From assembly GCF_051903065.1 (NCBI RefSeq), contig NZ_CP178438.1: a stretch of DNA of 64,000 bases, one strand, 5' to 3'. The stretch's first letter is position 1. The number at the start of each line of letters is the position of its first letter. Origin of the DNA: Escherichia coli. GTDB taxonomy: Bacteria > Pseudomonadota > Gammaproteobacteria > Enterobacterales > Enterobacteriaceae. The notes beneath the pieces are model-generated. The model ran no database searches. It was not told where the DNA came from and worked only from the letters and a program-made list of their open reading frames with translations. Shown here piece by piece: positions 1 through 50,095 of the stretch. The position numbers and the translations under genes are program-made.

Positions 1-70
1 CTCGCCGCAATGCTGGTTGGTCGTCCTGGTTAGGATCGATAACAACGAGCATGTTCTGATACATAGCCAT
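1..70 (-). CDS. uspE: universal stress protein E, N-terminal end only (gene runs off the window start)
   Basis: Reverse complement of 1-70 translates [23 protein letters not shown]; start codon complement at 68-70. Confidence 0.7.
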
Positions 71-221
71 ACAGGGTCTCCTTACAACAACTGTCAACGC
101 AGTTTGTAATTAAAAGATTAACCCATATCTGGTGAATGAAACAGTGATGAACCTTCTGCCAGATCAATAAATCAGAAAAATTTAATGATATGACAGAAGG
201 ATAGTGAGTTATGCGGAAAAA

Positions 222-974
222 TCAGGCAACGTTACGCGTATGACCAGCAAGCTGGGCCAGCGCATCGTTATTTTCGATGGTGATGTATTTACCTTTGACT
301 GCCAGCATACCGCTTTTCTGGAAGCGACCCAGCAGACGGCTGATGGTTTCTACCGTCAGGCCCAGATAGTTACCGATATCGCCACGAGTCATCGTCAGGC
401 GGAATTCACGAGGGGAGAAGCCGCGTTGGGCAAAACGACGGGACAGGTTGTAGATGAATGCAGCCAGACGTTCCTCGGCATTTTTCTTCGACAACAGCAG
501 GATCATGTCCTGATCGCCTTTGATTTCACCGCTCATCAGACGCATCATCTGCTGACGCAGATTCGGCATTTTACCGGACAAATCGTCCAGCGTTTCGAAC
601 GGGATTTCACATACCATCGAGGTTTCCAGCGCCTGCGCGAAGCTCGGGTGATGGCCGCTGCCGATGGCGTCAAATCCCACCAGGTCGCCTGCTAAATGGA
701 AACCAGTGATTTGCTCGTCGCCTTGCTCAGTGATGGTATAACTTTTAATCGTACCGGAGCGGATGGCATAAAGCGATTTAAGTTCATCACCAGCCTTAAA
801 CAGCGTCTGGCCTTTCTGAATAGGCTTCTTCCGCTCAATGATATTATCAAGCTGATCAAGCTCATGTTCGTTGAGTGTGAACGGGATGCAAAGCTGGCTG
901 ATGCTGCAATCCTGGCAATGGATAGCACAACCGCCAGACTGAATGCGCCGTATAATTCGCTTTTCCGGGATCAT
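222..974 (-). CDS. fnr: FNR anaerobic global regulator (CRP/FNR family)
   Basis: ORF 222-1031 contains [29 protein letters not shown] with the N-terminal Cys cluster; start trimmed to the MIPEK Met for a 250-aa product. Confidence 0.96.
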
Positions 975-993
975 AGGTCTGCTCAAGCCGTAA

Positions 994-1007
994 TTGATAT
1001 TTGTCAA
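994..1007. promoter_or_regulatory. FNR-box-like inverted repeat TTGATATTTGTCAA just upstream of the fnr start (autoregulatory site)
   Basis: Matches TTGAT-N4-ATCAA at 13 of 14 positions, about 20 nt upstream of the fnr start codon. Confidence 0.55.
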
Positions 1008-1168
1008 TTTTAACATCTTTTTAGGGAGCAAGTAAGTCTAAGCAAACCTTAACAGCAGAGAATTCCGATATTAGATGTAAATATATGTCTATCTATTTGA
1101 AAACCCTTAAGTTGTTAAGGGTAACTTTACATAAAAGTGTGAACAAGCTGGCACAAATTGTTTAATGT

Positions 1169-1684
1169 TTACAGCAAAAGATAACCTTCGTGGCGCAATA
1201 ACCACTCTTTTCGCTGAACTCCGCCTGCATATCCGGTCATGGTGCCGTTTCGGCCAATAACCCGATGGCAAGGTACGACGATGCTGATGGGATTCGATCC
1301 GTTTGCCGCACCAACGGCACGCGCCGCGCCAGGACGGCCCAATTGCTCAGCCAGTTCGCCGTAATGCATTACCTGCCCGCAGGGGATAGTGCGTAGTGTT
1401 TTCCAGACTTCGCGCTGAAATGGCGTCCCCCCCGTAGCAGTGGGAAGCGTATCAATAATGCTAAGATTACCGGCAAAATATTCACGAAGCTTGTCGCTTA
1501 AACCGCCTGGATTGGTGGCAGAAATGCGCTCATAGCCTTCTTTGCGATAATGGATGTCCAGCAGCTGCACCATGCGTTCGCTGTACTCTTCCCATTCAAC
1601 CGCCCGCAGGCGAAATTGCTCATCGCAAATCACCCACAGTGGACCCAGTGGCGTGGCAATTTTTTCTTCAAGTAATCTCAGCAT
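1169..1684 (-). CDS. ogt: O6-alkylguanine-DNA methyltransferase
   Basis: 171-aa ORF with the PCHRV active-site motif ([12 protein letters not shown]). Confidence 0.95.
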
Positions 1685-1694
1685 CCGTTCTCTC

Positions 1695-3221
1695 TTAAGA
1701 CAAACGTGGGTAAATACCCGGACCTATCGGCAGACCGACAAGATACCACGCCAGCAACATCAGCAGCCATACCACCAAAAAGATAAGTGGATAGGGCAAG
1801 ACTAACGAATAGTAAGTACCCAGTTTCGCGTCTGGTTTGTAGCGTTGCAGGAATCCAAGAAACAGTGGAACAAAAGGAGATACTGGCGCTAAAGGCAATA
1901 CGGATGAGTCGGCAATACGAAAGAGGATTTGCGCAAATGCCGGGTGAAAGCCAAGTAGCATAAACATTGGTACGAAAATGGGGGCCAGTATCGACCAGAT
2001 TGCGGAACCGCTGGCGATAAACATGCATAAGAAAGAGGAAAGCAACGCCAGACCGACAAACGCCGGGATGCCGCTAAGCCCTGAACTTTCCAGTATATCG
2101 GTCAGCCCCACGGCGATGAATTTCCCCATGTTGCTCCAGTTAAACATGGCGACAAATTGGGCGAGGGGAAAAACCATCACGATAAATCCCGCCATCTCTT
2201 TCATCGGTTCAATCATTAAATGCGGTAAATCCGCCTGACGTCGAATTGTGCGGGTAGCGATGCCATAAGCCAGCGAGACAACAAAGAAAAAAAGAATGAT
2301 CAGTGGCACGATACCTTTAATAAAGGGTGATGGCATCACGGTGTGATTAATCGGATCGCGTAATATCCCGTTTTCCGGGATCACCATCAGCGCAATCGCA
2401 GCAATAAAAAGTAGCGATACGACACCTGCTATGCGTAAACCAAAACGCTGACTTTCGGTCAATGTCTGCAGTTTCTCATCGCTGTTTCCCTGCCATTGAC
2501 CTAACCGTGGCTCGATGATTTTGTCGGTTATCAGGCCGCCAACAATCGTCAGTACGACTACGGAGCTGGCCATAAAATACCAGTTATCAATTACACTGAC
2601 GTGCATTTGCGGATTGAACGCAGCCGCCGCTTCCGTGCTGATCCCCGACAGCAACACGTCGGTTGTGACAATCAGTAAATTAGCCGTAAAGCCGCAACCT
2701 ACGCCTGCAATGGCAGCCAGTAAACCTGCAACTGGATGCCTGCCCACCGCCAGAAAAATCAGCGCACCCATCGGTGGCATGATCACTAACGCCGCATCGG
2801 AAGAAATGTGGCTGAAAAAAGCAATAAACAGCACCATATAACTGGCGTAGCGGGCATTAACATGCGATGCCATTTTAACCATTAGCGCTGGCAGTAAGCC
2901 GACGCGCTCCGCCAGACCGGCACCTAAAACCAGCGCCAGGATCGCACCAAGTGGAGCAAAACCGCTAAAGTTTTTAATAACATTGGGTAAAAACCAGTGT
3001 AATCCTTCAACACTGAGCAGGTTTTTCACCACCACCGGCGTACCATCGGTCGGGTTTTTCGCACTGACGCCAAAGGCCGACAAAATTGCCGTCGTCACCA
3101 TGAGTACGATAATCAAATAGATAAAGAGCAAAAAAGGATGGGGAACCTTGTTACCAATTCTTTCGACCCAGCCATAGAGCTTCCCGGATTGGGAGGACGA
3201 CGGTATGGATGACATACTCAT
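1695..3221 (-). CDS. abgT: p-aminobenzoyl-glutamate transporter (AbgT family)
   Basis: ORF 1695-3227 is polytopic membrane protein [23 protein letters not shown]; start set at 3221 because the GAGG Shine-Dalgarno (complement of 3229-3232) sits about 7 nt upstream. Confidence 0.9.
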
Positions 3222-3257
3222 GGGCATTCCTCGGTTGTTGTGTTTGCGTTGTTGTTG

Positions 3258-4692
3258 TTATTTTAAAGGTGACGGTGTCACGTTTTTCGGGATAGGGCAG
3301 TGGTACGGTTGCGTGTCCGTTACTTGCTGATGCTCTTGTTGGCATTCTTGCAATAGCCCTGAATCAAGGAAGAGATTGACTGTGGTTGCTGCCATAGTTT
3401 TCGCCGCCAGCAGCATTCCTTTATGAGCAATAGATGTTCGCCCCTGGCTAACCAGTTGCCACGTATGTAGGGGTGTACCGACGGCAAAACAGGGGCTGAA
3501 ACACTGGGCAACAGGCAGTTTCCAACTGACGTCGCCGACATCAGTCGATGCCGCAAGCACGTTATCGGTGGCGGCATATGGAGCGACTTCATTCGCCAGT
3601 ACCGTTTCACGATGACGTAGTGCAAAAACCTTGCCGTTTTCGCCACCGGTTGCGGCGATATTATTCAGACTGTTTTGCCGATCGTTGGAGGTGAGCGTAG
3701 CCTGAATTTGTTTCGCAAAAGCCAGTTCTTCGGAGTTCCATTCCGGGGTACCAAAATGGGATAGGGCCTGGTACATGGCATTTTCTAAGGTGCGATTCGG
3801 GAGATAACTGGAACAGGCTTTGTCGAAGCGGCATTCAACCTTGGTTTCGGTCATCAATGCCGCACCTTCGGCGATTTTGGCGACCCGATCATAAATATGC
3901 TGCACGTCGGTCATTTCGGGGGCGCGGATAAGATAAAGCACTTCTGCCTGCGCCTGGACCACGTTGGGCGAGATCCCGCCGCTATTTGTGATGGCATAGT
4001 GTACGCGCGCTTTTTCAATAATATGTTCGTTGAGGAAGTTGGTGCCAGTGGTCATCAACGTTACGGCATCAAGGGCGCTGCGTCCCAAATGAGGGGAATT
4101 CGCGGCATGTGCTGCGATCCCTTTAAAGCGCCATGATGCCTGAATGTTTGCCAGCGTGCGGGTATTGAACATACCGGCAAAGGCTTCCGGGTGCCAGGTG
4201 AGTGCCGCATCCACATCATCAAATACCCCCTCGCGAACCATGAACGTTTTACCCGAGCCGCCTTCTTCGCCAGGACAACCATAAAAGCGCACCGTGCCGC
4301 CTTGCCCATATTGTTCCAGCCATTTCTTGACGGCTATTGCAGCGGCAAAGGCGGCGGTTCCCAGCAAATTGTGTCCGCAACCGTGACCATTTTCACCGGG
4401 CGTCACGGATGTAGGTTGCGCGCAACCTGCTTGCTGACTTAAACCTGCCAGGGCGTCATATTCTCCCAGCAGGGCGATAACCGGTTTGCCTTGACCAAAC
4501 GAAGCAATAAAGGCATTTGGGATATTGCCTACGGGTGAAGCCTGCAGATTCCAGCGCCGAAGCCAGATGCTCCGCTGACCAGAACTCTTCAAAACGTGTT
4601 TCTGGATGATCCCAGATTTGATCGGCAATATCGGTATAACGTTGGCGATCGGCTTCAATCGCATCGTCGATAAAACGATAGATTTCCTGCAT
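3258..4692 (-). pseudogene. abgB: p-aminobenzoyl-glutamate hydrolase subunit B (M20 peptidase), reading frame disrupted near 4530-4540
   Basis: N-terminus MQEIYRFIDDAIEADRQRYTDIADQIWDHPETRFEEFWSAEHLASALESAGFT is in one frame (ORF 4456-4692); the rest from VGNIPNAFIASFGQGKPVIALLGEYD is in the adjacent frame (ORF 3258-4664); the switch is at a GGG run, plus-strand 4533-4535. Confidence 0.8.
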
Positions 4693-6002
4693 CAGATACC
4701 TCGCGTCCAGGGAAAATTGAGCGCGGTGCGCGCCAGCGTTTCGACGGCAATAGCGAGAACCTGCTCGTCAAAATCGAATTTTTCGTTGTGATGACCTGCC
4801 GCCAGCTGTGTGCCAAACACCACGTAGGAGGCTTGCCCTTGATGTTGCTGCACGCGGGCCATCATTAATGTGGCATCTTCGGAACCCGCAGGCGCTTCAA
4901 CACGTTCAATGGCCTGATTAACCCCCGCTACCTGAGCCGCCTGACTTTGCAACCATGCGACCCATTGCGGCGAAGGAGAACTGGCGGTAGCTGCACCCAT
5001 CAGACGAGTTTCAACGCCGACACCATACATGGTTGCTGCGCCCTGAATCGCTTGTTGTGCACGGTCAAAAACATATTGATTAATGACGTCGCTGGCCCCG
5101 CGTGTTTCCACTTTCAGCAACGCCGAGGCAGGAACAACATTACGACCGCTTCCTGCCTGCATAACGCCCACGTTTACTCTGGAAGCGCCTTCGCTGTGCG
5201 GGGCGATTGCATGTAGAGCAAGAGTTGCTTGTGCTGCCGCCAACAAGGCATTGTGACCGTCTTCTGGTTTTGCGCCTGCGTGAGCGGCGGTCCCGGTGAA
5301 GTGCGCGTCAAATTTGGTGGTTGCCATAAAATTATCACTGCCGCACACCACGGTGCCCGCAGGTACGCCAGTGCCAATGTGCACGGCAGTAAAATAATCA
5401 ACATCATCTACGACACCTGCATCGACCATCGCCCGCGCGCCACGCGTACCTTCTTCTGCAGGTTGAAAAATCAGTTTGATGATGCCATGTAGTCCGGACT
5501 CGAACTGTTTAAGGGTATGCGCCAGCCCAAGCCCAATGGCGGTATGCCCATCATGACCACAGGCATGCATCATTCCGGCGTTACATGACGCAAAACCGTC
5601 GCGGTAGGGGCGATGGCTGACATCCTGCTCTTCACTGAGATCCAGCGCGTCCATATCGACACGGAAAGCCATCACCGGACCGGGGCGACCGGTATCCAGG
5701 GTGGCGACGATACCCGTGAAACCACCTTCAAAAGCCGCAATCCATTGTGCTAGCGCACCCTGTTGACGAGCGCGCTCGAATTCGCGTTGTAGAGTGAGTT
5801 CATCAGGTAGTCCCATCCGACTACTTTCATTAACTACTTCGCGGCCCAGCGCCAGTGAATAGCCGAGCTGCTGCAATTCTTCCGCAACAAGGGTGGCAGT
5901 GCGGAATTCCACCCAGCCAGACTCTGCATAGTGATGAAAATCACGTCGCCAGTGCGATAATTTTGGGGCAAGCGAATTAACAAATTGATTCAAAGACTCC
6001 AT
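4692..6002 (-). CDS. abgA: p-aminobenzoyl-glutamate hydrolase subunit A (M20 family)
   Basis: ORF 4692-6017, start trimmed to MESLNQFVNSLAPK (436 aa); stop overlaps the abgB ATG (TGATG). Confidence 0.92.
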   Translation of the reverse strand: MESLNQFVNSLAPKLSHWRRDFHHYAESGWVEFRTATLVAEELQQLGYSLALGREVVNESSRMGLPDELTLQREFERARQQGALAQWIAAFEGGFTGIVATLDTGRPGPVMAFRVDMDALDLSEEQDVSHRPYRDGFASCNAGMMHACGHDGHTAIGLGLAHTLKQFESGLHGIIKLIFQPAEEGTRGARAMVDAGVVDDVDYFTAVHIGTGVPAGTVVCGSDNFMATTKFDAHFTGTAAHAGAKPEDGHNALLAAAQATLALHAIAPHSEGASRVNVGVMQAGSGRNVVPASALLKVETRGASDVINQYVFDRAQQAIQGAATMYGVGVETRLMGAATASSPSPQWVAWLQSQAAQVAGVNQAIERVEAPAGSEDATLMMARVQQHQGQASYVVFGTQLAAGHHNEKFDFDEQVLAIAVETLARTALNFPWTRGI

Positions 6003-6177
6003 AACCTTTCCCGTCATCAGTAAAAAGTGTGACCCGGTTCACGTAGCGATAGTTTTTACTTATCACTAACTGATTTTTCACAGTTTTAACCGTTCATAAA
6101 TTACCCTGACACAATCATCTGCATTAAAGTAGATGCCAGTTTCTTTGGTCTGATAAATAACGGTTATCGGTGGCGTC

Positions 6178-7086
6178 ATGGCTTTTCAGGTAAAAATTCA
6201 TCAAATTCGGGCTTTTGTTGAAGTGGCTCGTCAGGGCAGCATTCGCGGAGCGAGCCGAATGTTGAATATGTCGCAACCGGCACTGAGTAAATCTATTCAG
6301 GAGCTGGAAGAAGGGTTAGCGGCGCAACTCTTTTTTCGCCGTAGTAAAGGTGTGACGTTAACTGATGCCGGTGAAAGTTTTTATCAGCACGCCAGTCTTA
6401 TTCTTGAAGAGCTGCGCGCAGCCCAAGAGGATATTCGCCAACGACAAGGGCAACTGGCAGGGCAGATTAATATCGGCATGGGGGCCAGTATTTCCCGCAG
6501 TCTGATGCCAGCTGTCATATCTCGTTTTCATCAGCAGCATCCGCAGGTAAAAGTACGCATTATGGAAGGGCAACTGGTGTCGATGATTAATGAATTGCGT
6601 CAGGGAGAATTGGATTTCACCATCAATACCTATTATCAGGGACCGTACGACCACGAATTTACTTTTGAGAAATTACTGGAAAAGCAATTCGCGATCTTTT
6701 GCCGCCCGGGACACCCCGCCATTGGTGCCCGTTCGATCAAACAGTTACTGGATTACAGCTGGACAATGCCGACGCCACACGGCAGCTACTACAAACAGTT
6801 GAGTGAATTGCTTGACGATCAGGCGCAAACGCCACAGGTCGGTGTAGTCTGCGAGACGTTCTCAGCCTGTATCAGTCTGGTGGCAAAAAGCGATTTTCTC
6901 AGCATACTGCCTGAAGAAATGGGCTGCGATCCCTTGCACGGACAGGGGCTGGTGATGTTGCCGGTTAGCGAAATTTTACCGAAAGCGGCCTATTATTTGA
7001 TTCAGCGGCGTGATAGTCGCCAGACACCACTGACCGCGTCATTAATCACGCAATTCCGGCGAGAATGCGGCTATCTGCAAAGTTAA
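6178..7086 (+). CDS. abgR: LysR-type transcriptional regulator of the abg operon
   Basis: 302-aa ORF with N-terminal HTH (ASRMLNMSQPALSKSIQELEE), divergent from abgA. Confidence 0.93.
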   Translation: MAFQVKIHQIRAFVEVARQGSIRGASRMLNMSQPALSKSIQELEEGLAAQLFFRRSKGVTLTDAGESFYQHASLILEELRAAQEDIRQRQGQLAGQINIGMGASISRSLMPAVISRFHQQHPQVKVRIMEGQLVSMINELRQGELDFTINTYYQGPYDHEFTFEKLLEKQFAIFCRPGHPAIGARSIKQLLDYSWTMPTPHGSYYKQLSELLDDQAQTPQVGVVCETFSACISLVAKSDFLSILPEEMGCDPLHGQGLVMLPVSEILPKAAYYLIQRRDSRQTPLTASLITQFRRECGYLQS

Positions 7087-7093
7087 AACTGCA

Positions 7094-7188
7094 TAAAAAA
7101 ATAGAGTCTGTCGACATCCGCCAGACTCTACAGTACACACAGCAGTGCATCCGCGTCTTAAATCCGGCATTGTCTCCTCTGCGCCGGT
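7094..7188 (-). ncRNA. mcaS: McaS (IsrA) small RNA with intrinsic terminator
   Basis: abgR-smrA intergenic; minus-strand hairpin TAGAGTCTG / CAGACTCTA (7102-7130) followed by a U7 tract; TATAAC -10 box just upstream of the predicted 5' end; about 95 nt, matching the known position. Confidence 0.7.
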
Positions 7189-7415
7189 GACTGTGTTATA
7201 ACGGTTTTAACCTTTAGTTGCCAATTTTCTTCAGTGACAGATTTCACGAAAATATAAGTTACATTATTAATATCGTGAATGAATAATCATGCATAAGCAT
7301 TTTGCTTAAAATATCGGCAATATTTGGAACTTATTACTGGAATTTTGGGTAATACGTTGTTGGACCGACCCGGTCTGGTTATCATATCGCGCTCTTAATT
7401 GCGGGAGGATGTAAC

Positions 7416-7979
7416 ATGAACCTTGACGACAAATCGCTGTTTCTTGACGCCATGGAAGATGTCCAGCCGCTGAAACGTGCTACCGATGTCCACTGGCATC
7501 CAACGCGTAACCAACGTGCGCCGCAGCGTATCGACACGCTGCAGCTTGATAATTTCCTCACTACCGGATTTCTCGACATTATCCCGCTAAGTCAGCCGCT
7601 GGAGTTTCGGCGGGAAGGGTTGCAACATGGGGTGCTGGATAAGCTGCGTAGTGGTAAATATCCGCAACAGGCGAGCCTGAATCTTTTGCGCCAGCCGGTG
7701 GAAGAGTGCCGCAAAATGGTGTTCAGTTTCATTCAACAAGCCCTGGCGGATGGTTTGCGTAACGTGCTGATTATTCATGGTAAAGGGCGGGATGATAAAT
7801 CGCATGCCAATATTGTCCGCAGCTATGTGGCGCGCTGGCTGACCGAATTTGATGATGTTCAGGCATATTGCACCGCACTACCGCATCATGGCGGCAGCGG
7901 GGCGTGTTACGTCGCACTACGTAAAACGGCGCAGGCGAAGCAAGAAAACTGGGAGCGCCACGCTAAGCGCAGTCGTTGA
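7416..7979 (+). CDS. smrA: Smr-domain DNA endonuclease
   Basis: 187-aa ORF MNLDDKSLFLDAMEDVQPLK with C-terminal Smr domain (LIIHGKGRDDKS). Confidence 0.9.
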   Translation: MNLDDKSLFLDAMEDVQPLKRATDVHWHPTRNQRAPQRIDTLQLDNFLTTGFLDIIPLSQPLEFRREGLQHGVLDKLRSGKYPQQASLNLLRQPVEECRKMVFSFIQQALADGLRNVLIIHGKGRDDKSHANIVRSYVARWLTEFDDVQAYCTALPHHGGSGACYVALRKTAQAKQENWERHAKRSR

Positions 7980-7999
7980 TCTCGAGACGCATCCGCGGC

Positions 8000-9232
8000 T
8001 TATGCCGCCAGCACGCGGTTGCGTCCATCATTTTTCGCCCGATACAAAGCATCATCAACGCGTTTAAACAGTTCATCGATGCTTTCATTTCCTTCGTGAT
8101 GCGCCACACCAATGCTGACGGTAAAGCGTGGTAAGCCCGAAATACTCACTTTTGCCACGCTTACGCGGATAGTTTCAGCCAGCGAAAGTGCAGTATCCAG
8201 TGGGGTTCTTGGTAGCAATAAGACAAACTCTTCGCCTCCCCAACGAAACACCAAATCGCCTTTGCGAGCGCAACTTTCGAGGGTGCGGGCGAGGGCGCAT
8301 AACACCTCATCACCTTTAGAATGCCCATAGAGATCGTTAATGTGTTTAAAACGATCGGTGTCGATGAGCAACAAGCTGTAATCCTGAGCGATGGCGAGAT
8401 GCTGCATTTGGCCTGGTTCCGTAATGTGATAAAACTGTCGCCGATTCAGTAATCCGGTCATCGCGTCATGGTGAGCAGCATGTTCCAGCTGCTCCTCCAG
8501 CCGTTTTTGCTCAGTAATATCATGCACAATACATAACATGAGCTTGTCGCCATAAATTTCAATCGGTCCGGCATAGGTCTGCACATGACGAGTAGAACCA
8601 TCCGCCAGCCTATGAATAAAATTCAAAGGCTTATGACCACCGGGTAAATGCGAGATTTCATGCATGATAGGCATGACGCGACGCCCGAGCATATTAATTT
8701 CCCATGTATGTTTCTGGCACATCGTTTCATGGTTATAACCATAGAAATTGAGCGCGGCGAGGTTAGCATCGACGATTTGGCCATCTCGTGAGGGGTCAAT
8801 CAACAACATTGGTGCAGAGTTAGTCAGAAAAAAGCGCGCATAAAAACCTTGTTTTTTGCGCTGATAATTTGCCGAGCGACTGGCTTTTAAACCCAGCGTT
8901 GTCGGCGCTTCGATTCCTTCGAAAATAATCACCGGTTCTGCTTCTGTCAGCTTTCGCAAAACAAGCCGACAGCTCAATGCTGTTTCCTCTTCATTGCGCT
9001 GAACGGTGAGGATTTCGATAATATCGTGTTGGTTTTGCAGATCGGAGAGGTATTTCGGCAGTTCTTTTTGTGAGGAGACGGAATAGGGACCGGTTCGTAG
9101 CTGACTAAACGTGAGGTCTTGCATCAACAGTCGCGCCGCGCTATTGGCATAAATTAACTGTTCCTCAAAGGGCGAAACGATCCAGACAGGACTGGTGAGT
9201 AAGTCCAGGGTATTGAAGTTGTGCGTAATCAT
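8000..9232 (-). CDS. dgcM: PAS-GGDEF diguanylate cyclase
   Basis: 410-aa ORF with GGEEF active-site motif (VFRWGGEEFVLLL) and N-terminal PAS regions. Confidence 0.93.
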   Translation of the reverse strand: MITHNFNTLDLLTSPVWIVSPFEEQLIYANSAARLLMQDLTFSQLRTGPYSVSSQKELPKYLSDLQNQHDIIEILTVQRNEEETALSCRLVLRKLTEAEPVIIFEGIEAPTTLGLKASRSANYQRKKQGFYARFFLTNSAPMLLIDPSRDGQIVDANLAALNFYGYNHETMCQKHTWEINMLGRRVMPIMHEISHLPGGHKPLNFIHRLADGSTRHVQTYAGPIEIYGDKLMLCIVHDITEQKRLEEQLEHAAHHDAMTGLLNRRQFYHITEPGQMQHLAIAQDYSLLLIDTDRFKHINDLYGHSKGDEVLCALARTLESCARKGDLVFRWGGEEFVLLLPRTPLDTALSLAETIRVSVAKVSISGLPRFTVSIGVAHHEGNESIDELFKRVDDALYRAKNDGRNRVLAA

Positions 9233-9465
9233 TGAGATCCCATTATTTTTATCAATTTTTGTTGCTATCCGATCGCAATAAAGTCACGTCATATGATCAG
9301 ATAATTCTGATAATGATAGACGCTATTTAACACTTCACACGGTTTGTATACGGAAAAGCATTTTGCTTTTTGTATTCAATTTAGACAGAATTTTATTAAT
9401 CATTTCAGGGTAATGGGGTGATGAGATGTTGCGTAACAGGGCCAGAAGGCTAGACTACAAAATAA

Positions 9466-10470
<1,005 letters not shown>

Positions 10471-10516
10471 CAAAAGCAATTTTTCCGGCTGTCTGTATAC
10501 AAAAACGCCGCAAAGT

Positions 10517-10530
10517 TTGAGCGAAGTCAA
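10517..10530. promoter_or_regulatory. FNR-box-like site TTGAGCGAAGTCAA upstream of fnrS
   Basis: TTGAN-N4-NTCAA half-sites centred about 41 nt upstream of the predicted fnrS 5' end, with a CAATAT -10-like hexamer at 10553-10558. Confidence 0.55.
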
Positions 10531-10565
10531 TAAACTCTCTACCCATTCAGGGCAATATCTCTCTT

Positions 10566-10687
10566 GCAGGTGAATGCAACGTCAAGCGATGGGCGTTGCG
10601 CTCCATATTGTCTTACTTCCTTTTTTGAATTACTGCATAGCACAATTGATTCGTACGACGCCGACTTTGATGAGTCGGCTTTTTTTT
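10566..10687 (+). ncRNA. fnrS: FnrS small RNA (FNR-activated) with intrinsic terminator
   Basis: zntB-dbpA intergenic; canonical terminator GCCGACT-ttgatga-GTCGGC then T8 (10660-10687); C/U-rich single-stranded stretch CTTACTTCCTTTTTT; about 122 nt. Confidence 0.7.
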
Positions 10688-10744
10688 GCCTGTTATTTAT
10701 CAGCGTCTACCCTTTAAGAGTCCACCCAATGACCAGAGGGAAAT

Positions 10745-10918
10745 ATGACGACACTTATTTATTTGCAAATTCCTGTCCCTGAACCGATTCCTGGCGATCC
10801 TGTTCCAGTGCCCGATCCGATCCCTCGCCCGCAACCCATGCCTGACCCACCACCCGATGAAGAACCGATTAAATTGTCGCATCGTGAACGTAGATCTGCG
10901 AGGATACGCGCCTGCTAA
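10745..10918 (+). CDS. hypothetical proline-rich small protein (57 aa) upstream of dbpA
   Basis: ATG at 10745 with GAGGG Shine-Dalgarno 6 nt upstream; translation MTTLIYLQIPVPEPIPGDPVPVPDPIPRPQPMPDPPPDEEPIKLSHRERRSARIRAC; below the 60-aa cut-off of the ORF track. Confidence 0.3.
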   Translation: MTTLIYLQIPVPEPIPGDPVPVPDPIPRPQPMPDPPPDEEPIKLSHRERRSARIRAC

Positions 10919-10947
10919 CTTTGCGTCGATGACCACGAGAATAGATT

Positions 10948-12321
10948 GTGACCGCTTTTTCTACCCTGAATGTTTTGCCTCCCGCCCAACTCACGAACCT
11001 TAATGAGTTGGGTTATTTAACCATGACGCCGGTGCAGGCCGCCGCGCTTCCGGCGATCCTTGCCGGAAAAGATGTTCGCGTGCAGGCGAAAACCGGCAGC
11101 GGCAAAACGGCGGCTTTTGGCCTCGGCTTGTTACAGCAAATTGATGCGTCGCTATTTCAAACCCAGGCTTTAGTGCTGTGTCCTACGCGTGAACTGGCGG
11201 ATCAGGTGGCAGGTGAATTGCGTCGGCTGGCGCGTTTTCTGCCAAATACCAAAATTTTGACGTTGTGCGGTGGTCAACCGTTCGGTATGCAGCGTGATTC
11301 GTTGCAACATGCGCCGCATATTATCGTGGCAACGCCGGGTCGTTTGCTGGATCACTTGCAAAAAGGCACGGTATCACTGGATGCGCTGAATACTTTGGTG
11401 ATGGATGAGGCCGACCGCATGCTGGATATGGGATTTAGCGATGCCATTGATGATGTCATCCGTTTTGCGCCTGCATCTCGACAGACGCTTCTGTTTTCGG
11501 CAACCTGGCCGGAAGCCATCGCTGCAATCAGCGGACGAGTGCAACGCGATCCTTTGGCGATTGAAATTGACTCAACAGATGCTTTGCCACCCATTGATCA
11601 ACAATTTTATGAGACATCCAGTAAAGGCAAAATTCCTCTGTTGCAACGGTTATTAAGCTTGCATCAGCCATCCTCTTGCGTGGTGTTTTGCAATACCAAA
11701 AAAGATTGCCAGGCTGTCTGCGACGCGCTGAATGAAGTAGGGCAAAGTGCATTGTCATTACACGGCGATTTGGAGCAACGCGATCGTGATCAGACCTTGG
11801 TACGTTTTGCTAACGGTAGCGCCCGTGCACTGGTCGCGACTGATGTTGCTGCGCGTGGTCTGGATATTAAATCGCTTGAGCTGGTGGTGAACTTTGAGCT
11901 GGCGTGGGACCCTGAAGTTCATGTACATCGCATCGGTCGTACAGCTCGTGCAGGAAATAGCGGTCTGGCGATCAGTTTCTGTGCTCCGGAAGAAGCACAG
12001 CGGGCCAATATCATTTCTGACATGTTGCAGATAAAACTTAACTGGCAAACGCCGCCAGCTAATAGTTCCATTGTGACGCTGGAAGCAGAAATGGCAACGT
12101 TGTGTATCGATGGCGGGAAAAAAGCCAAAATGCGCCCGGGTGATGTATTAGGTGCACTGACAGGAGATATCGGGCTTGATGGCGCAGATATTGGCAAAAT
12201 CGCCGTGCATCCGGCGCATGTCTATGTCGCGGTCCGTCAGGCTGTTGCTCATAAAGCATGGAAACAGTTACAGGGCGGGAAGATTAAAGGAAAAACGTGC
12301 CGGGTGCGGTTATTAAAATAA
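10948..12321 (+). CDS. dbpA: DEAD-box ATP-dependent RNA helicase (23S rRNA specific)
   Basis: 457-aa ORF with GTG start, Walker A (AKTGSGKT), DEAD box (VMDEADRMLDMGF), SAT and HRIGRTAR motifs. Confidence 0.95.
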   Translation: MTAFSTLNVLPPAQLTNLNELGYLTMTPVQAAALPAILAGKDVRVQAKTGSGKTAAFGLGLLQQIDASLFQTQALVLCPTRELADQVAGELRRLARFLPNTKILTLCGGQPFGMQRDSLQHAPHIIVATPGRLLDHLQKGTVSLDALNTLVMDEADRMLDMGFSDAIDDVIRFAPASRQTLLFSATWPEAIAAISGRVQRDPLAIEIDSTDALPPIDQQFYETSSKGKIPLLQRLLSLHQPSSCVVFCNTKKDCQAVCDALNEVGQSALSLHGDLEQRDRDQTLVRFANGSARALVATDVAARGLDIKSLELVVNFELAWDPEVHVHRIGRTARAGNSGLAISFCAPEEAQRANIISDMLQIKLNWQTPPANSSIVTLEAEMATLCIDGGKKAKMRPGDVLGALTGDIGLDGADIGKIAVHPAHVYVAVRQAVAHKAWKQLQGGKIKGKTCRVRLLK

Positions 12322-12369
12322 TGAAATGTTGAATTGCCGGGTGCAAGAGTAAACATCTTATTCGGGATT

Positions 12370-12439
12370 GCCGGATGCGACGCTGGCCGCGTCTTATCCG
12401 GCCTCCATAAGAGTAGCCCGATACGCTTGCGCATCGGGC
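12370..12439. repeat. REP-type extragenic palindromes between convergent dbpA and ttcA
   Basis: GCCGGATGCGACGCTGGCCGCGTCTTATCCGGCCTCC (12370-12406) plus hairpin GCCCGAT / ATCGGGC (12416-12439). Confidence 0.5.
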
Positions 12440-12449
12440 GCTATCCTGG

Positions 12450-13385
12450 TTATTTCACTTCAACCACATTCAGCCGTAACTCATCCAACTGATTTTCATC
12501 TTCTTCTGGCTGCCAGCCCGCCGGTTGTAGTGGGATCTCTTCGCGATCAAACGCCAGATCACCCCCGTTAACCACTTCAGAACCGTGGGTGATGCCTTTG
12601 AAATCGAACAGGTTGGTATCGCACAGATGCGACGGCACCACATTCTGCATCGCGCTGAACATCGTCTCGATACGCCCTGGATAACGTTTATCCCAGTCAC
12701 GCAACATGTCAGCAATCACCTGACGTTGCAGGTTAGGCTGTGAACCGCACAGGTTGCACGGAATAATCGGGAACGCTTTTGCATCGGCAAATCGCTGAAT
12801 ATCTTTCTCGCGGCAGTAGGCCAGCGGACGAATAACGATATGTTTGCCATCATCGCTCATCAGTTTCGGAGGCATACCTTTCATCTTGCCGCCGTAGAAC
12901 ATATTTAAGAACAACGTTTGCAGGATATCGTCACGATGGTGGCCCAACGCGATCTTCGTCGCCCCCAGTTCCGTTGCGGTGCGATAAAGGATACCGCGAC
13001 GTAGCCGAGAACACAGTGAGCAAGTGGTTTTGCCCTCTGGAATCTTCTCTTTCACGATACCGTAAGTGTTCTCTTCAACAATCTTGTACTCAACGCCCAG
13101 CTTTTCAAGATACTCGGGCAGAACGTGTTCCGGGAAGCCCGGTTGCTTTTGATCGAGGTTAACAGCCACCAGCGAAAAATTGATTGGCGCGCTTTGCTGC
13201 AAATTGCGCAGAATCTCCAGCATGGTATAGCTGTCTTTACCCCCGGAGAGGCAAACCATGATGCGATCGCCTTCTTCAATCATATTGAAGTCAGCAATGG
13301 CTTCGCCCACGTTACGACGCAGGCGTTTTTGTAATTTGTTCAGATTGTATTGTTCTTTCTTGCTAATTTCTTGATTTTGCGACAT
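12450..13385 (-). CDS. ttcA: tRNA 2-thiocytidine(32) synthetase
   Basis: 311-aa ORF with PP-loop SGGKDS and CxxC pairs (CSLCSR, CNLCGS). Confidence 0.93.
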
Positions 13386-15269: not shown

Positions 15270-15496
15270 TGAATAAATCCTTTAGTTATTTTATTTGCCT
15301 TTTATCCCCATTTCGGGGAGTGAAAACATCCTAAAGGAGAAGTTCAGTTAGCCGATAAATATCATTTGTTACGCCTTAAGTAAAACCTTAATCAAATAAT
15401 TCCTCTGAAATGATAATAAGTCTGGTGAATGTATCGAAGATAATACATACAAAATAAAAATTATACTTTTAATTTTCTATACGTTATTCTGCGCGG

Positions 15497-15606
15497 GTTA
15501 TATGCCTTTATTGTCACAGATTTTATTTTTTGTTGGGCCATTGCATTGCCACTGATTTTCCAACATATAAAAAGACAAGCCCGAACAGTCGTCCGGGCTT
15601 TTTTTT
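15497..15606 (+). ncRNA. micC: MicC small RNA (ompC regulator) with intrinsic terminator
   Basis: ompN-pfo intergenic; begins GTTATATGCCTTTATTGTCACAGATTTTATTTT and ends with hairpin GCCCG-aacagtcgtc-CGGGC plus T8 (15579-15606); about 110 nt, divergent from ompN. Confidence 0.85.
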
Positions 15607-15634
15607 AGAATTGGATAATCCTTATCCAGAGCAT

Positions 15635-45856: not shown

Positions 45857-47296
45857 ATGTCAGTACCCGTTCAACATCCTATGTATATTGATGGACAGTT
45901 TGTTACCTGGCGTGGAGACGCATGGATTGATGTGGTAAACCCTGCTACAGAGGCTGTCATTTCCCGCATTCCCGATGGTCAGGCCGAGGATGCCCGTAAG
46001 GCAATCGATGTAGCAGAACGTGCACAACCAGAATGGGAAGCGTTGCCTGCCATTGAACGCGCCAGTTGGTTGCGCAAAATCTCCGCCGGGATCCGCGAAC
46101 GCGCCAGTGAAATCAGTGCGCTGATTGTTGAAGAAGGGGGCAAGATCCAGCAGCTGGCTGAAGTCGAAGTGGCTTTTACTGCGGACTATATCGATTACAT
46201 GGCGGAGTGGGCACGGCGTTACGAGGGCGAGATTATTCAAAGCGATCGTCCAGGAGAAAATATTCTTCTGTTTAAACGTGCACTTGGCGTGACTACCGGC
46301 ATTCTGCCGTGGAACTTCCCGTTCTTCCTCATTGCCCGCAAAATGGCTCCCGCTCTTTTGACCGGTAATACCATCGTCATTAAACCCAGTGAATTTACGC
46401 CAAACAATGCGATTGCATTCGCCAAAATCGTCGATGAAATAGGCCTTCCGCGCGGCGTGTTTAACCTTGTTCTGGGGCGTGGTGAAACCGTTGGGCAAGA
46501 ACTGGCGGGTAACCCAAAGGTCGCAATGGTCAGTATGACAGGCAGCGTCTCTGCAGGTGAGAAGATCATGGCGACTGCGGCGAAAAACATCACTAAAGTG
46601 TGTCTGGAATTGGGTGGTAAAGCACCAGCTATCGTAATGGACGATGCCGATCTTGAACTGGCAGTCAAAGCCATCGTTGATTCACGCGTCATTAATAGTG
46701 GGCAAGTGTGTAACTGTGCAGAACGTGTTTATGTACAGAAAGGCATTTATGATCAGTTCGTCAATCGGCTGGGTGAAGCGATGCAGGCGGTTCAATTTGG
46801 TAACCCCGCTGAACGCAACGACATTGCGATGGGGCCGTTGATTAACGCCGCGGCGCTGGAAAGGGTCGAGCAAAAAGTGGCGCGCGCAGTAGAAGAAGGG
46901 GCGAGAGTGGCGTTGGGTGGCAAAGCGGTAGAGGGGAAAGGATATTATTATCCGCCGACATTGCTGCTGGATGTTCGCCAGGAAATGTCGATTATGCATG
47001 AGGAAACCTTTGGCCCGGTGCTGCCAGTTGTCGCATTTGACACGCTGGAAGATGCTATCTCAATGGCTAATGACAGTGATTACGGCCTGACCTCATCAAT
47101 CTATACCCAAAATCTGAACGTCGCGATGAAAGCCATTAAAGGGCTGAAGTTTGGTGAAACTTACATCAACCGTGAAAACTTCGAAGCTATGCAAGGCTTC
47201 CACGCCGGATGGCGTAAATCCGGTATTGGCGGCGCAGATGGTAAACATGGCCTGCATGAATATCTGCAGACCCAGGTGGTTTATTTACAGTCTTGA
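45857..47296 (+). CDS. aldA: lactaldehyde / glycolaldehyde dehydrogenase (NAD-dependent)
   Basis: 479-aa ORF with aldehyde dehydrogenase Glu and Cys active-site regions (LELGGKAP, GQVCNCAERV). Confidence 0.96.
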   Translation: MSVPVQHPMYIDGQFVTWRGDAWIDVVNPATEAVISRIPDGQAEDARKAIDVAERAQPEWEALPAIERASWLRKISAGIRERASEISALIVEEGGKIQQLAEVEVAFTADYIDYMAEWARRYEGEIIQSDRPGENILLFKRALGVTTGILPWNFPFFLIARKMAPALLTGNTIVIKPSEFTPNNAIAFAKIVDEIGLPRGVFNLVLGRGETVGQELAGNPKVAMVSMTGSVSAGEKIMATAAKNITKVCLELGGKAPAIVMDDADLELAVKAIVDSRVINSGQVCNCAERVYVQKGIYDQFVNRLGEAMQAVQFGNPAERNDIAMGPLINAAALERVEQKVARAVEEGARVALGGKAVEGKGYYYPPTLLLDVRQEMSIMHEETFGPVLPVVAFDTLEDAISMANDSDYGLTSSIYTQNLNVAMKAIKGLKFGETYINRENFEAMQGFHAGWRKSGIGGADGKHGLHEYLQTQVVYLQS

Positions 47297-47305
47297 TGAG
47301 TGAAA

Positions 47306-47330
47306 GAGGCGGAGGTTTTTTCCTCCGCCT
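47306..47330. terminator. bidirectional terminator between convergent aldA and gapC
   Basis: Hairpin GAGGCGGAGG-tttttt-CCTCCGCC. Confidence 0.6.
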
Positions 47331-47337
47331 GTGCGCG

Positions 47338-48339
47338 TCAGAGTTTAGCGAATTTTTCGAGGGTGCGAATAAGCTGCGTGACGAAGCCATATTCGTTATC
47401 GTACCAGGCGACCGTTTTCACCAGTTGTAAATCGCCCACGGCGGTAATTTCCGTTTGCGTGGCATCAAACACCGAACCGAAATGGCTGCCAATGATATCG
47501 GAAGAGACTATTTCTTCATCGGTATAACCAAATGACTCGTTATTGGTGGTTGCTTGTTTAAGTGCGTTATTCACCTCTTCGGTAGTCACTTTTTTTCCGA
47601 GAATGGACACCAGCTCAGTGACCGAACCTGTTTTCACCGGTACGCGTTGCGCATGACCTTTCAGTTTGCTGCTCAGTTCCGGTATCACCAGACCAATGGC
47701 TTTTGCCGCCCCCGTAGTGTGGGGAATGATATTTTCTGCCGCGGCGCGTGAAGCACGTAAATCTTTACCACGCGGGCCATCCACCAGTGACTGGGTGCCA
47801 GTATATGCATGAATGGTCGTCATCGTGCCGACTTCTATCCCGAAACTGTCATGCAAGGCTTTGGCCATCGGCGCAAGACAGTTAGTAGTGCATGATGCCA
47901 CGGAAACAATGGTGTCGTTGCTATCCAGAGTGTCGTCATTGACGTTATAAACGATAGTTTTCATTTCACCGGCAGGGGCGGAAATCAACACCTTCTTCGC
48001 GCCAGCATCAAGATGCGCCTGCGATTTCTCGGCGGAGGTATAAAAGCCAGTACATTCGACAATGATTTCTGCACCTTTCGCTTTCCACGGAATATTTTTA
48101 GCCTCTTTTTCGGCGTAAACCGCGATACTTTTCCCATTAACGATAAGTGAATCTTCCGTAAAATCAACGCTCCAGGGGAACGGTCCGTAGTTTGAATCAT
48201 GTTTCAGCAGGTAGGCGAGAATTTTTGGAGAAGTGAGATCATTAATAGCGACAACGTCTATGTTGCTTTTGACTTCAAGTAATCGACGCAACACCAGTCG
48301 ACCGATACGACCAAAACCGTTAATACCAACTTTACTCAT
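47338..48339 (-). CDS. gapC: glyceraldehyde-3-phosphate dehydrogenase paralogue, intact ORF
   Basis: 333-aa uninterrupted ORF with catalytic [10 protein letters not shown] and N-terminal NGFGRIGR Rossmann motif. Confidence 0.9.
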
Positions 48340-48527
48340 GGTTTTCTCCTGTCAGGAACGTTCGGATGAAAATTGATCCTTTCCAGGCTTAGACCAGGAT
48401 GGCGGGATGGGCAATCTCCATTCTTACAGTGAAACGTAACGTACTGAAAACGGGTGAACAATATTTAATGAAATTTTGAGAAAAGCCCGTTATGTTAACG
48501 GAAAATTATGTTAAAGCAGGAAATGTT

Positions 48528-49058
48528 ATGGAAAATAAATACTCAAGGTTACAAATCGGCATTCACTGGCTGGTCTTTTTGCTGGTTATCGCAGCGTGTT
48601 GCGCAATGGAGTTTCGTGGTTTCTTCCCACGTAGCGATCGACCGCTCATCAACATGATTCATGTTTCCTGTGGCATCTTAATTCTCGTGCTGATGGTGGT
48701 TCGTCTTTTGTTAAGACTGAAATACCCAACCCCGCCGATTATACCTAAGCCGAAACCGATGATGACGGGACTGGCGCATTTGGGACATTTGGTGATTTAT
48801 CTCCTGTTTATTGCGCTGCCAGTGATTGGTTTGGTGATAATGTATAACCGGGGCAACCCGTGGTTTGCGTTTGGTTTGACGATGCCTTACGCTTCAGAGG
48901 CCAATTTCGAACGGGTAGATAGCTTAAAGTCGTGGCATGAAACGCTGGCGAATCTGGGATATTTTGTCATCGGGTTGCACGCTGCGGCTGCACTGGCACA
49001 CCACTATTTCTGGAAGGACAACACACTTCTACGCATGATGCCGCGTAAACGTTCCTGA
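48528..49058 (+). CDS. cybB: cytochrome b561
   Basis: ORF 48492-49058 trimmed to MENKYSRLQIGIHWLVFLLVI (176 aa) with AGGAAA Shine-Dalgarno. Confidence 0.92.
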   Translation: MENKYSRLQIGIHWLVFLLVIAACCAMEFRGFFPRSDRPLINMIHVSCGILILVLMVVRLLLRLKYPTPPIIPKPKPMMTGLAHLGHLVIYLLFIALPVIGLVIMYNRGNPWFAFGLTMPYASEANFERVDSLKSWHETLANLGYFVIGLHAAAALAHHYFWKDNTLLRMMPRKRS

Positions 49059-49068
49059 AGGATATTTA

Positions 49069-49132
49069 AAGAAAACGCCTGTACTAAAACCGACCCGTGG
49101 TACAGGCGAAGAATACGGGTCTACATCGGAAG
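49069..49132 (-). ncRNA. rydC: RydC small RNA (pseudoknotted, Hfq-dependent)
   Basis: cybB-ydcA intergenic; minus strand CUUCCGAUGUAGACCCGUAUUCUUCGCCUGUACCACGGGUCGGUUUUAGUACAGGCGUUUUCUU, 64 nt ending in a U-rich tail; 8-bp inverted repeat GCCTGTAC / GTACAGGC. Confidence 0.55.
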
Positions 49133-49547: not shown

Positions 49548-49734
<187 letters not shown>

Positions 49735-49755
<21 letters not shown>

Positions 49756-49810
49756 TCGTTGGCCTCGGTTGATAGAAATATCGGTCGGGGCCTTCGTCTT
49801 TCTGATTCCC
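49735..49810 (+). ncRNA. sokB: sokB antisense RNA (approximate position)
   Basis: Inferred only from hok/sok architecture (antisense to the mokB start region); boundaries not resolved. Confidence 0.3.
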
Positions 49811-50095
49811 GGTTAGCCTGAAAACAGAAAGTCTCAGGCACCCGTGAGCATCCTATGTGGTTTCCTTAGGGACGAAAATAATCACCTGACGAAATTGCGT
49901 GCTGTTTTCCAGAATTTTTCGTCATTCGGGTTAGCCAGTTTAACCATTCGTTACTCTCTTCATTCCAATGGCATTAATCTTCTCTGCAATAATTGTTGTA
50001 AAAATGTGACGCAAAGAGGCTTTTAGTCGTAAGTAATTACCGTCAAATGCCGATGACTTTCTATCAGGAGTAAACCTGGACGAGAGACAACGGTA

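Follow-up and report, generated by a model that had tools for sequence, protein, structure and literature searches.

What is the gapC gene of Escherichia coli: a pseudogene, as the K-12 reference has it, or a working gene for a glyceraldehyde-3-phosphate dehydrogenase (GAPDH)? In K-12 MG1655, gapC (b4493; formerly gapC_1 b1417 / gapC_2 b1416) is annotated as a pseudogene, and the RefSeq remark on the gene in one K-12 derivative reads 'frameshifted; internal stop'. Here we analyze the copy carried by another stretch of E. coli DNA, 64,000 nucleotides long and called the window below, in which the initial annotation had described gapC as an intact open reading frame (ORF) of 333 codons.

The locus is laid out as follows:

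47338..48339, minus strand: gapC coding sequence, 333 codons, ATG at 48339-48337 and TGA at 47340-47338; type I NAD-dependent GAPDH
45857..47296, plus strand: aldA, aldehyde dehydrogenase A, the convergent downstream neighbor, which fixes the identity of the locus
48528..49058, plus strand: cybB, cytochrome b561 / superoxide oxidase, the divergent upstream neighbor
48340..48527, minus strand: divergent intergenic region between gapC and cybB, 188 bp, of which 2 bases differ from K-12
48346..48350, minus strand: AGGAG, Shine-Dalgarno-like, 6 nt 5' of the gapC ATG, read directly (cctgacAGGAGaaaaccATG)
47307..47330, no strand assigned: hairpin with a 9-bp GC-rich stem, AGGCGGAGG / 6-nt loop / CCTCCGCCT, within the 41 bp that separate the stop codons of aldA and gapC

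Independent retranslation of the 1002 nt from ATG to TGA agrees with the ORF listing. The terminal stop is the sole stop, and a search across all 1002 nt for a premature stop or a frameshift found none. The frame therefore stands as first described, with the addition that it lies on the minus strand, which that description had omitted.

The AGGAG motif is a putative Shine-Dalgarno sequence, and the gapC promoter presumably lies within the 188-bp region that separates the gene from cybB. A scan for consensus sigma-70 promoters 5' of gapC returned 2 sites against 1.9 expected, no better than shuffled sequence. At the other end of the gene, the hairpin folds with a dG of -18.5 kcal/mol (z = -4.3; 0/200 shuffles as stable) and could plausibly act as a shared terminator for both convergent transcripts. 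It was not listed by a simple terminator scan because its T-tract is weak.

Several metagenome gene calls (P0002-P0007, P0026, P0033) give a GapC of 383 aa, with a 50-residue N-terminal extension whose equivalent in the window is 48340-48491. Presumably the gene finder picked an upstream in-frame start in these cases. The family model and the crystal construct both agree with a start that gives 333 aa, as does the AGGAG site.

The product matches the NCBIfam model TIGR01534 with 446.6 bits (cutoff 367.2, E=5.1e-134), residues 3-325 aligning to positions 1-330 of the 330 in the model. Both expected domains are present, namely the N-terminal NAD-binding Rossmann domain (Pfam Gp_dh_N, PF00044; residues 3-102, 123.9 bits, E=3.6e-36) and the C-terminal catalytic domain (Gp_dh_C, PF02800; residues 155-313, 192.4 bits, E=4.8e-57). 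The Pfam and NCBIfam E-values rule out a chance ORF at 47338..48339. A type II GAPDH was rejected as well, with a score far under the curated cutoff.

Both motifs that had been noticed at first reading, the catalytic and the Rossmann motif, are found, at residues 146-157 (Cys150) and 5-14, respectively. The catalytic residues Cys150 and His177 (GapC numbering) are invariant in the orthologues and occur in 98 of 99 diverse GAPDH-family representatives, which were drawn from a search of 50%-identity clusters. For NAD(+) binding, GapC has the GxGxxG-type motif at residues 5-14 together with D34; in GAPDHs, Asp34 selects NAD over NADP. The phosphate-site residues are likewise kept, with T180, T182 and R232 in the Ps site and S149, T151, T209 and G210 in the new Pi site. 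All ligand contacts named from structures (R11, I12, D34, K78, S120, S149, C150, T151, H177, T180, T182, H207, T209, G210 and R232) are found in the window GapC, and all are conserved across 10 orthologues.

In the PDB, 14 entries (7C5F-7C5R, 7C7K) match window GapC; their five distinct sequences are those of the wild type and of four mutants with active-site changes. The wild-type protein of 7C5F is identical to window GapC at 329 of 333 residues. This protein, EcGAPDH1, is an active NAD-dependent GAPDH with a Km of 0.73 mM for D-G3P; C150A abolishes its activity, C150S and H177A each cause a loss of ~10^4-fold, and crystal complexes have been obtained with NAD+, phosphate, G3P, the thioacyl intermediate and BPG (PMC8615399). 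The kinetic measurements were made at 50 C and pH 10 (PMC8615399), so they do not by themselves establish relevance in vivo.

In the mechanism that we propose for GapC, Cys150 would attack glyceraldehyde-3-phosphate to form a thioacyl intermediate, with His177 acting as the base. NAD+ would take the hydride, and inorganic phosphate would then release 1,3-bisphosphoglycerate from the intermediate.

Other studies have found gapC to be intact in environmental isolates and expressed preferentially in fresh water (PMC2949598). The gapC transcript is down-regulated in an EPEC csrA mutant, i.e., it is CsrA-dependent (PMC6333774), and the gene has served as an E. coli qPCR marker, with citation of UniProt P58072 and Hidalgo et al. 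1996 (PMC10614358). In two further papers (PMC3080795, PMC8003623) the K-12 gapC is merely used or listed and no functional information is added. We discarded PMC5610209 (Martin & Cerff) as a source on E. coli gapC, as 'GAPC' there denotes the plant cytosolic GAPDH. An intact gapC, a broken K-12 copy and an active intact protein are thus each already known from the literature and the PDB.

GapC orthologues of 332-333 aa with 86-96% identity are found in E. albertii, Citrobacter, Trabulsiella, Klebsiella, Kluyvera and Yokenella, and these genes keep cybB, aldA and/or ydcF as neighbors. By its position and distribution, gapC is an ancestral gene of enterobacteria that has stayed at the cybB-gapC-aldA-ydcF locus. 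We rejected a recent horizontal acquisition because the locus and its neighbors are the same in Citrobacter, Klebsiella and E. albertii and because the gene is near-universal in E. coli, being present in 5417 of 5426 complete genomes (99.8%). In E. albertii, aldA is missing altogether at the gapC locus.

Nei-Gojobori estimates of dN/dS are 0.019-0.066 among six other intact E. coli gapC alleles and ~0.02 against E. albertii and Citrobacter. These ratios point to strong purifying selection on gapC.

Based on these data, we consider it highly probable that the ORF is an intact gapC coding for a second chromosomal type I GAPDH, most likely a tetrameric, NAD-dependent phosphorylating enzyme, and that this is the ancestral and common state in E. 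coli; the activity of the allele itself is what we infer. The initial annotation had spoken of a possibly functional second GAPDH. For the gene family this was, if anything, an understatement, with an active enzyme identical at 329 of 333 residues and with purifying selection on the gene, although the rare G224S replacement may affect the activity of this particular allele.

How does the K-12 copy differ? Global alignment of the two genes gives 20 differences in 1002 nt (98.0% nucleotide identity), two of which are lesions. The first is A115T, by which AAA at codon 39 becomes TAA, and the second is a 1-bp deletion that shortens the A-run at codon 248 from 8 A to 7 A. The other 18 are further substitutions. 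The window gene is intact at both sites:

48223..48225, minus strand: codon 39, AAA (Lys); TAA stop in K-12, from the alignment to K-12
47596..47603, minus strand: run of 8 A on the coding strand, codons 246-248; 7 A and a frameshift in K-12, from the alignment to K-12

The b4493 annotation and the two aligned lesions bear out the statement, made at first reading, that K-12 gapC is an interrupted pseudogene. The order aldA-gapC-cybB is common to the window, K-12, ECNB21-M121, O157:H7 and other E. coli.

Among the complete E. coli genomes, 5409 carry a gene with 95-100% identity to the window gapC. By exact match, 1152 genomes have the K-12 stop haplotype and 1046 the K-12 frameshift haplotype, or ~19-21% of the 5426. 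For these counts we used 61- and 64-nt queries centered on each K-12 lesion, for which the band of >=99% identity holds exact matches only. In a sample spread over the ranking, 8 of 39 full-length matches fall short of 1002 bases, at 1001 or 1000, and all 8 of the 1002-bp alleles sampled are annotated as intact. The figure of ~20% for broken gapC combines the exact 61-/64-mer counts with the spread sample of 39 rows and is influenced by the large number of K-12 laboratory derivatives among the genomes. Intact gapC is accordingly the majority state, found in about four fifths of sequenced E. coli, and the broken K-12 copy is the minority.

The TAA and 7-A lesions of K-12 are exactly shared by the gapC of one cow, one chicken and one clinical isolate (L017, L018, L019). 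The chicken isolate has a gapC 100% identical to that of K-12, and the gene of the patient isolate carries one extra deletion. The double lesion of K-12 is expected to be monophyletic, probably within phylogroup A, while other damaged forms, among them a GapC of 314 aa in LF82 (P0047) and an additional deletion in 14EC001, would be scattered independent events. These results indicate that the K-12 lesions are a natural inherited polymorphism, not a product of laboratory domestication. According to a review-type statement, laboratory strains 'accumulate mutations in gapC' (PMC2949598). Since the lesions are identical in non-laboratory isolates and present in ~20% of complete genomes, this remark is probably mistaken as to where they arose.

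The picture is reversed relative to K-12 in the bloodstream isolate MS20657 (L011, 1344-1602), in which gapC is intact and the adjoining aldA is annotated as frameshifted.

An open frame is one thing and an active enzyme another, and the window allele has a feature of its own:

47668..47670, minus strand: codon 224, AGC (Ser); GGC (Gly) in nearly all E. coli and other GAPDHs, a lineage-specific substitution

Position 224 is Gly in 10 of 10 orthologues and in 92 of the 99 diverse GAPDH-family representatives (93%); of the other seven, three have Asn, two Asp and one Ser, and one has a gap there. A 61-mer with S224 has exact matches in only 3 of 5426 genomes, namely those that are 100% identical to the window. 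S224 is not a sequencing error, because three independent complete assemblies carry it.

Relative to the nearest sampled allele, the window allele has 4 nonsynonymous and 10 synonymous differences, giving a dN/dS of 0.12 compared to 0.02-0.07 for the other pairs, an excess of ~3 nonsynonymous events that was noticed post hoc. The ratio could reflect some relaxed constraint, the counts being small.

Could the ORF be intact and the enzyme nonetheless impaired or drifting? G224S would then form, together with D68N, G140S and A253T, an early and ORF-preserving stage of the decay that is completed in the K-12 lineage. The strongly conserved glycine, the rarity of the S224 haplotype and the raised nonsynonymous ratio all lean this way, as does the dispensability of gapC, of which ~20% of strains have a dead copy. 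Yet serine is a natural residue at position 224 (P0245), as are Asn and Asp, and positions 68, 140 and 253 vary across GapC orthologues and the family, N68 and S140 being found in other species. None of the four residues is among the ligand contacts described for the crystal structures, and the nonsynonymous excess amounts to about three events, noticed post hoc. We therefore regard an impaired enzyme as unlikely. There is, by the same weighing, a small chance that GapC of this three-genome lineage has been functionally altered or weakened by G224S and the three other replacements, as beginning decay or as adaptation, with the frame still open.

Because serine occurs naturally at position 224 and the residue lies outside the ligand contacts, the window GapC (N68, S140, S224, T253) is most likely an active enzyme. 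We also infer that this allele is expressed.

Nucleotide 670 of gapC (window 47670) has changed twice independently, from G to A in the lineage of the window, where it gives G224S, and from G to T in cow strain 54 (L017 position 970). The latter change is the sole difference between the gapC pseudogene of strain 54 and that of K-12. The double change is probably a coincidence.

A second alternative concerns the substrate. GapC might belong to a related group of dehydrogenases that act on a different substrate or with a different partner, for example the erythrose-4-phosphate dehydrogenases or the ArsJ-associated GAPDHs, and not be primarily a glycolytic enzyme. GapA already serves glycolysis in E. 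coli, and the NCBIfam models of both groups do match GapC below threshold. The scores fall far under the cutoffs, however, at 275.1 and 280.6 bits against 530.55 and 539 for Epd (TIGR01532 and NF010058) and 304 against 450 for the ArsJ-associated GAPDH (NF033735, G3PDH_Arsen), while the type I GAPDH model passes its own. The neighbors are aldA and cybB, with no adjacent arsJ, and EcGAPDH1 (329/333 identical) uses NAD+ to convert G3P and has been trapped with G3P, as the thioacyl intermediate and with BPG. Epd and the ArsJ-associated enzyme were rejected on these grounds, and a different primary substrate is very improbable.

Lastly, the K-12 frameshift lies in a homopolymer of 7-8 A, a classic site of sequencing errors, and a true K-12-like frameshift might have been miscalled as in frame during sequencing or assembly. 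The chance of this is practically negligible: three complete assemblies, made independently, agree at 100% over 24 kb; codon 39 reads AAA where K-12 has TAA, a base substitution to which homopolymer length is irrelevant; 18 further sites differ from K-12; and the 8-A form is the one found in most E. coli genomes.

The intact gene had also been taken as support for a non-K-12 background. The background is indeed not that of K-12: in addition to the 20 differences in gapC, 24 kb around the gene are 100% identical to strains 23CRST027, 23CRST031 and ECNB21-M121, and both the Rac prophage and the fea/tyn/paa block are absent. By itself, an intact gapC indicates such a background only weakly, because ~80% of complete E. 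coli genomes are without the K-12 lesions.

The two absences are clear from the alignment of the whole window. Positions 1-13378 align to K-12 1398553-1411941, and the next block begins at K-12 1434959. The 23-kb cryptic prophage Rac (K-12 1411899-1434958) is absent at window 13336-13378, which looks like an unoccupied Rac attachment site at the end of ttcA. At window 24577-29765, ~26 kb of K-12 are replaced by 5.2 kb without a megablast match in the 117 kb of K-12 compared (1395000-1512000). The K-12 stretch missing there holds feaR, feaB, tynA, the whole paa phenylacetate cluster and the 5' part of the IS-disrupted ydbA. The replacement segment contains a ydbA/BigA-like autotransporter that is split into two ORFs:

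24947-28819: autotransporter ORF 1, 1290 aa, with a BigA_N domain
29636-31627: autotransporter ORF 2, 663 aa, with BigA_beta and Autotransporter beta-domain

From 29766 to 64000 the window aligns continuously to K-12. Since this alignment is unbroken, IS609 (insQ), annotated in K-12 between ydcL and ydcO (1503161-1504908), appears to be present too, near window 62000-64000. Five small RNAs match Rfam models over the gathering score, all at the positions expected from the K-12 map:

7093-7188, minus strand: McaS sRNA
10566-10683, plus strand: FnrS sRNA
15494-15614, plus strand: MicC sRNA
49069-49132, minus strand: RydC sRNA, just 3' of cybB
49692-49843, minus strand: sok antitoxin RNA of the hokB/sokB locus

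What follows for annotation is that gapC should be called a functional type I GAPDH here, and that the pseudogene label should not be transferred from the K-12 reference. K-12 is atypical at this locus, its dead allele being a natural polymorphism found in about one fifth of complete genomes; beyond annotation, the significance is small. At the same time, the activity of the window GapC should not simply be assumed from the crystallized enzyme, because a conserved glycine has undergone a rare replacement in this allele.

Among known systems, the closest is the E. coli GapC crystallized as EcGAPDH1 (PDB 7C5F-7C5R; UniProt P58072 for O157:H7), which shares gene, locus and protein length with the window copy and agrees with it in the catalytic and ligand-binding residues. 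Window GapC differs from the 7C5F protein at four positions, with N68 for D, S140 for G, S224 for G and T253 for A. The K-12 gapC occupies the orthologous locus between aldA and cybB, and its upstream region differs from that of the window at 2 of 188 bases, but it has the TAA at codon 39 and the deletion at codon 248, and the window gene has neither. The enterobacterial orthologues (E. albertii, Citrobacter, Klebsiella oxytoca/grimontii, Kluyvera, Yokenella and Trabulsiella) show species-level divergence, and all of them keep Gly224, unlike the window protein. Finally, GapA (b1779), the main glycolytic GAPDH, shares with GapC the fold, the family and the catalytic motif, both being type I NAD-dependent enzymes. 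GapA of K-12 is encoded at another locus and is 46% identical to GapC (151/327 aligned residues), so gapC is a paralogue and not the main glycolytic gene. Compared to GapA, GapC appears to play a secondary and dispensable part in physiology, as ~20% of strains do without a working copy.
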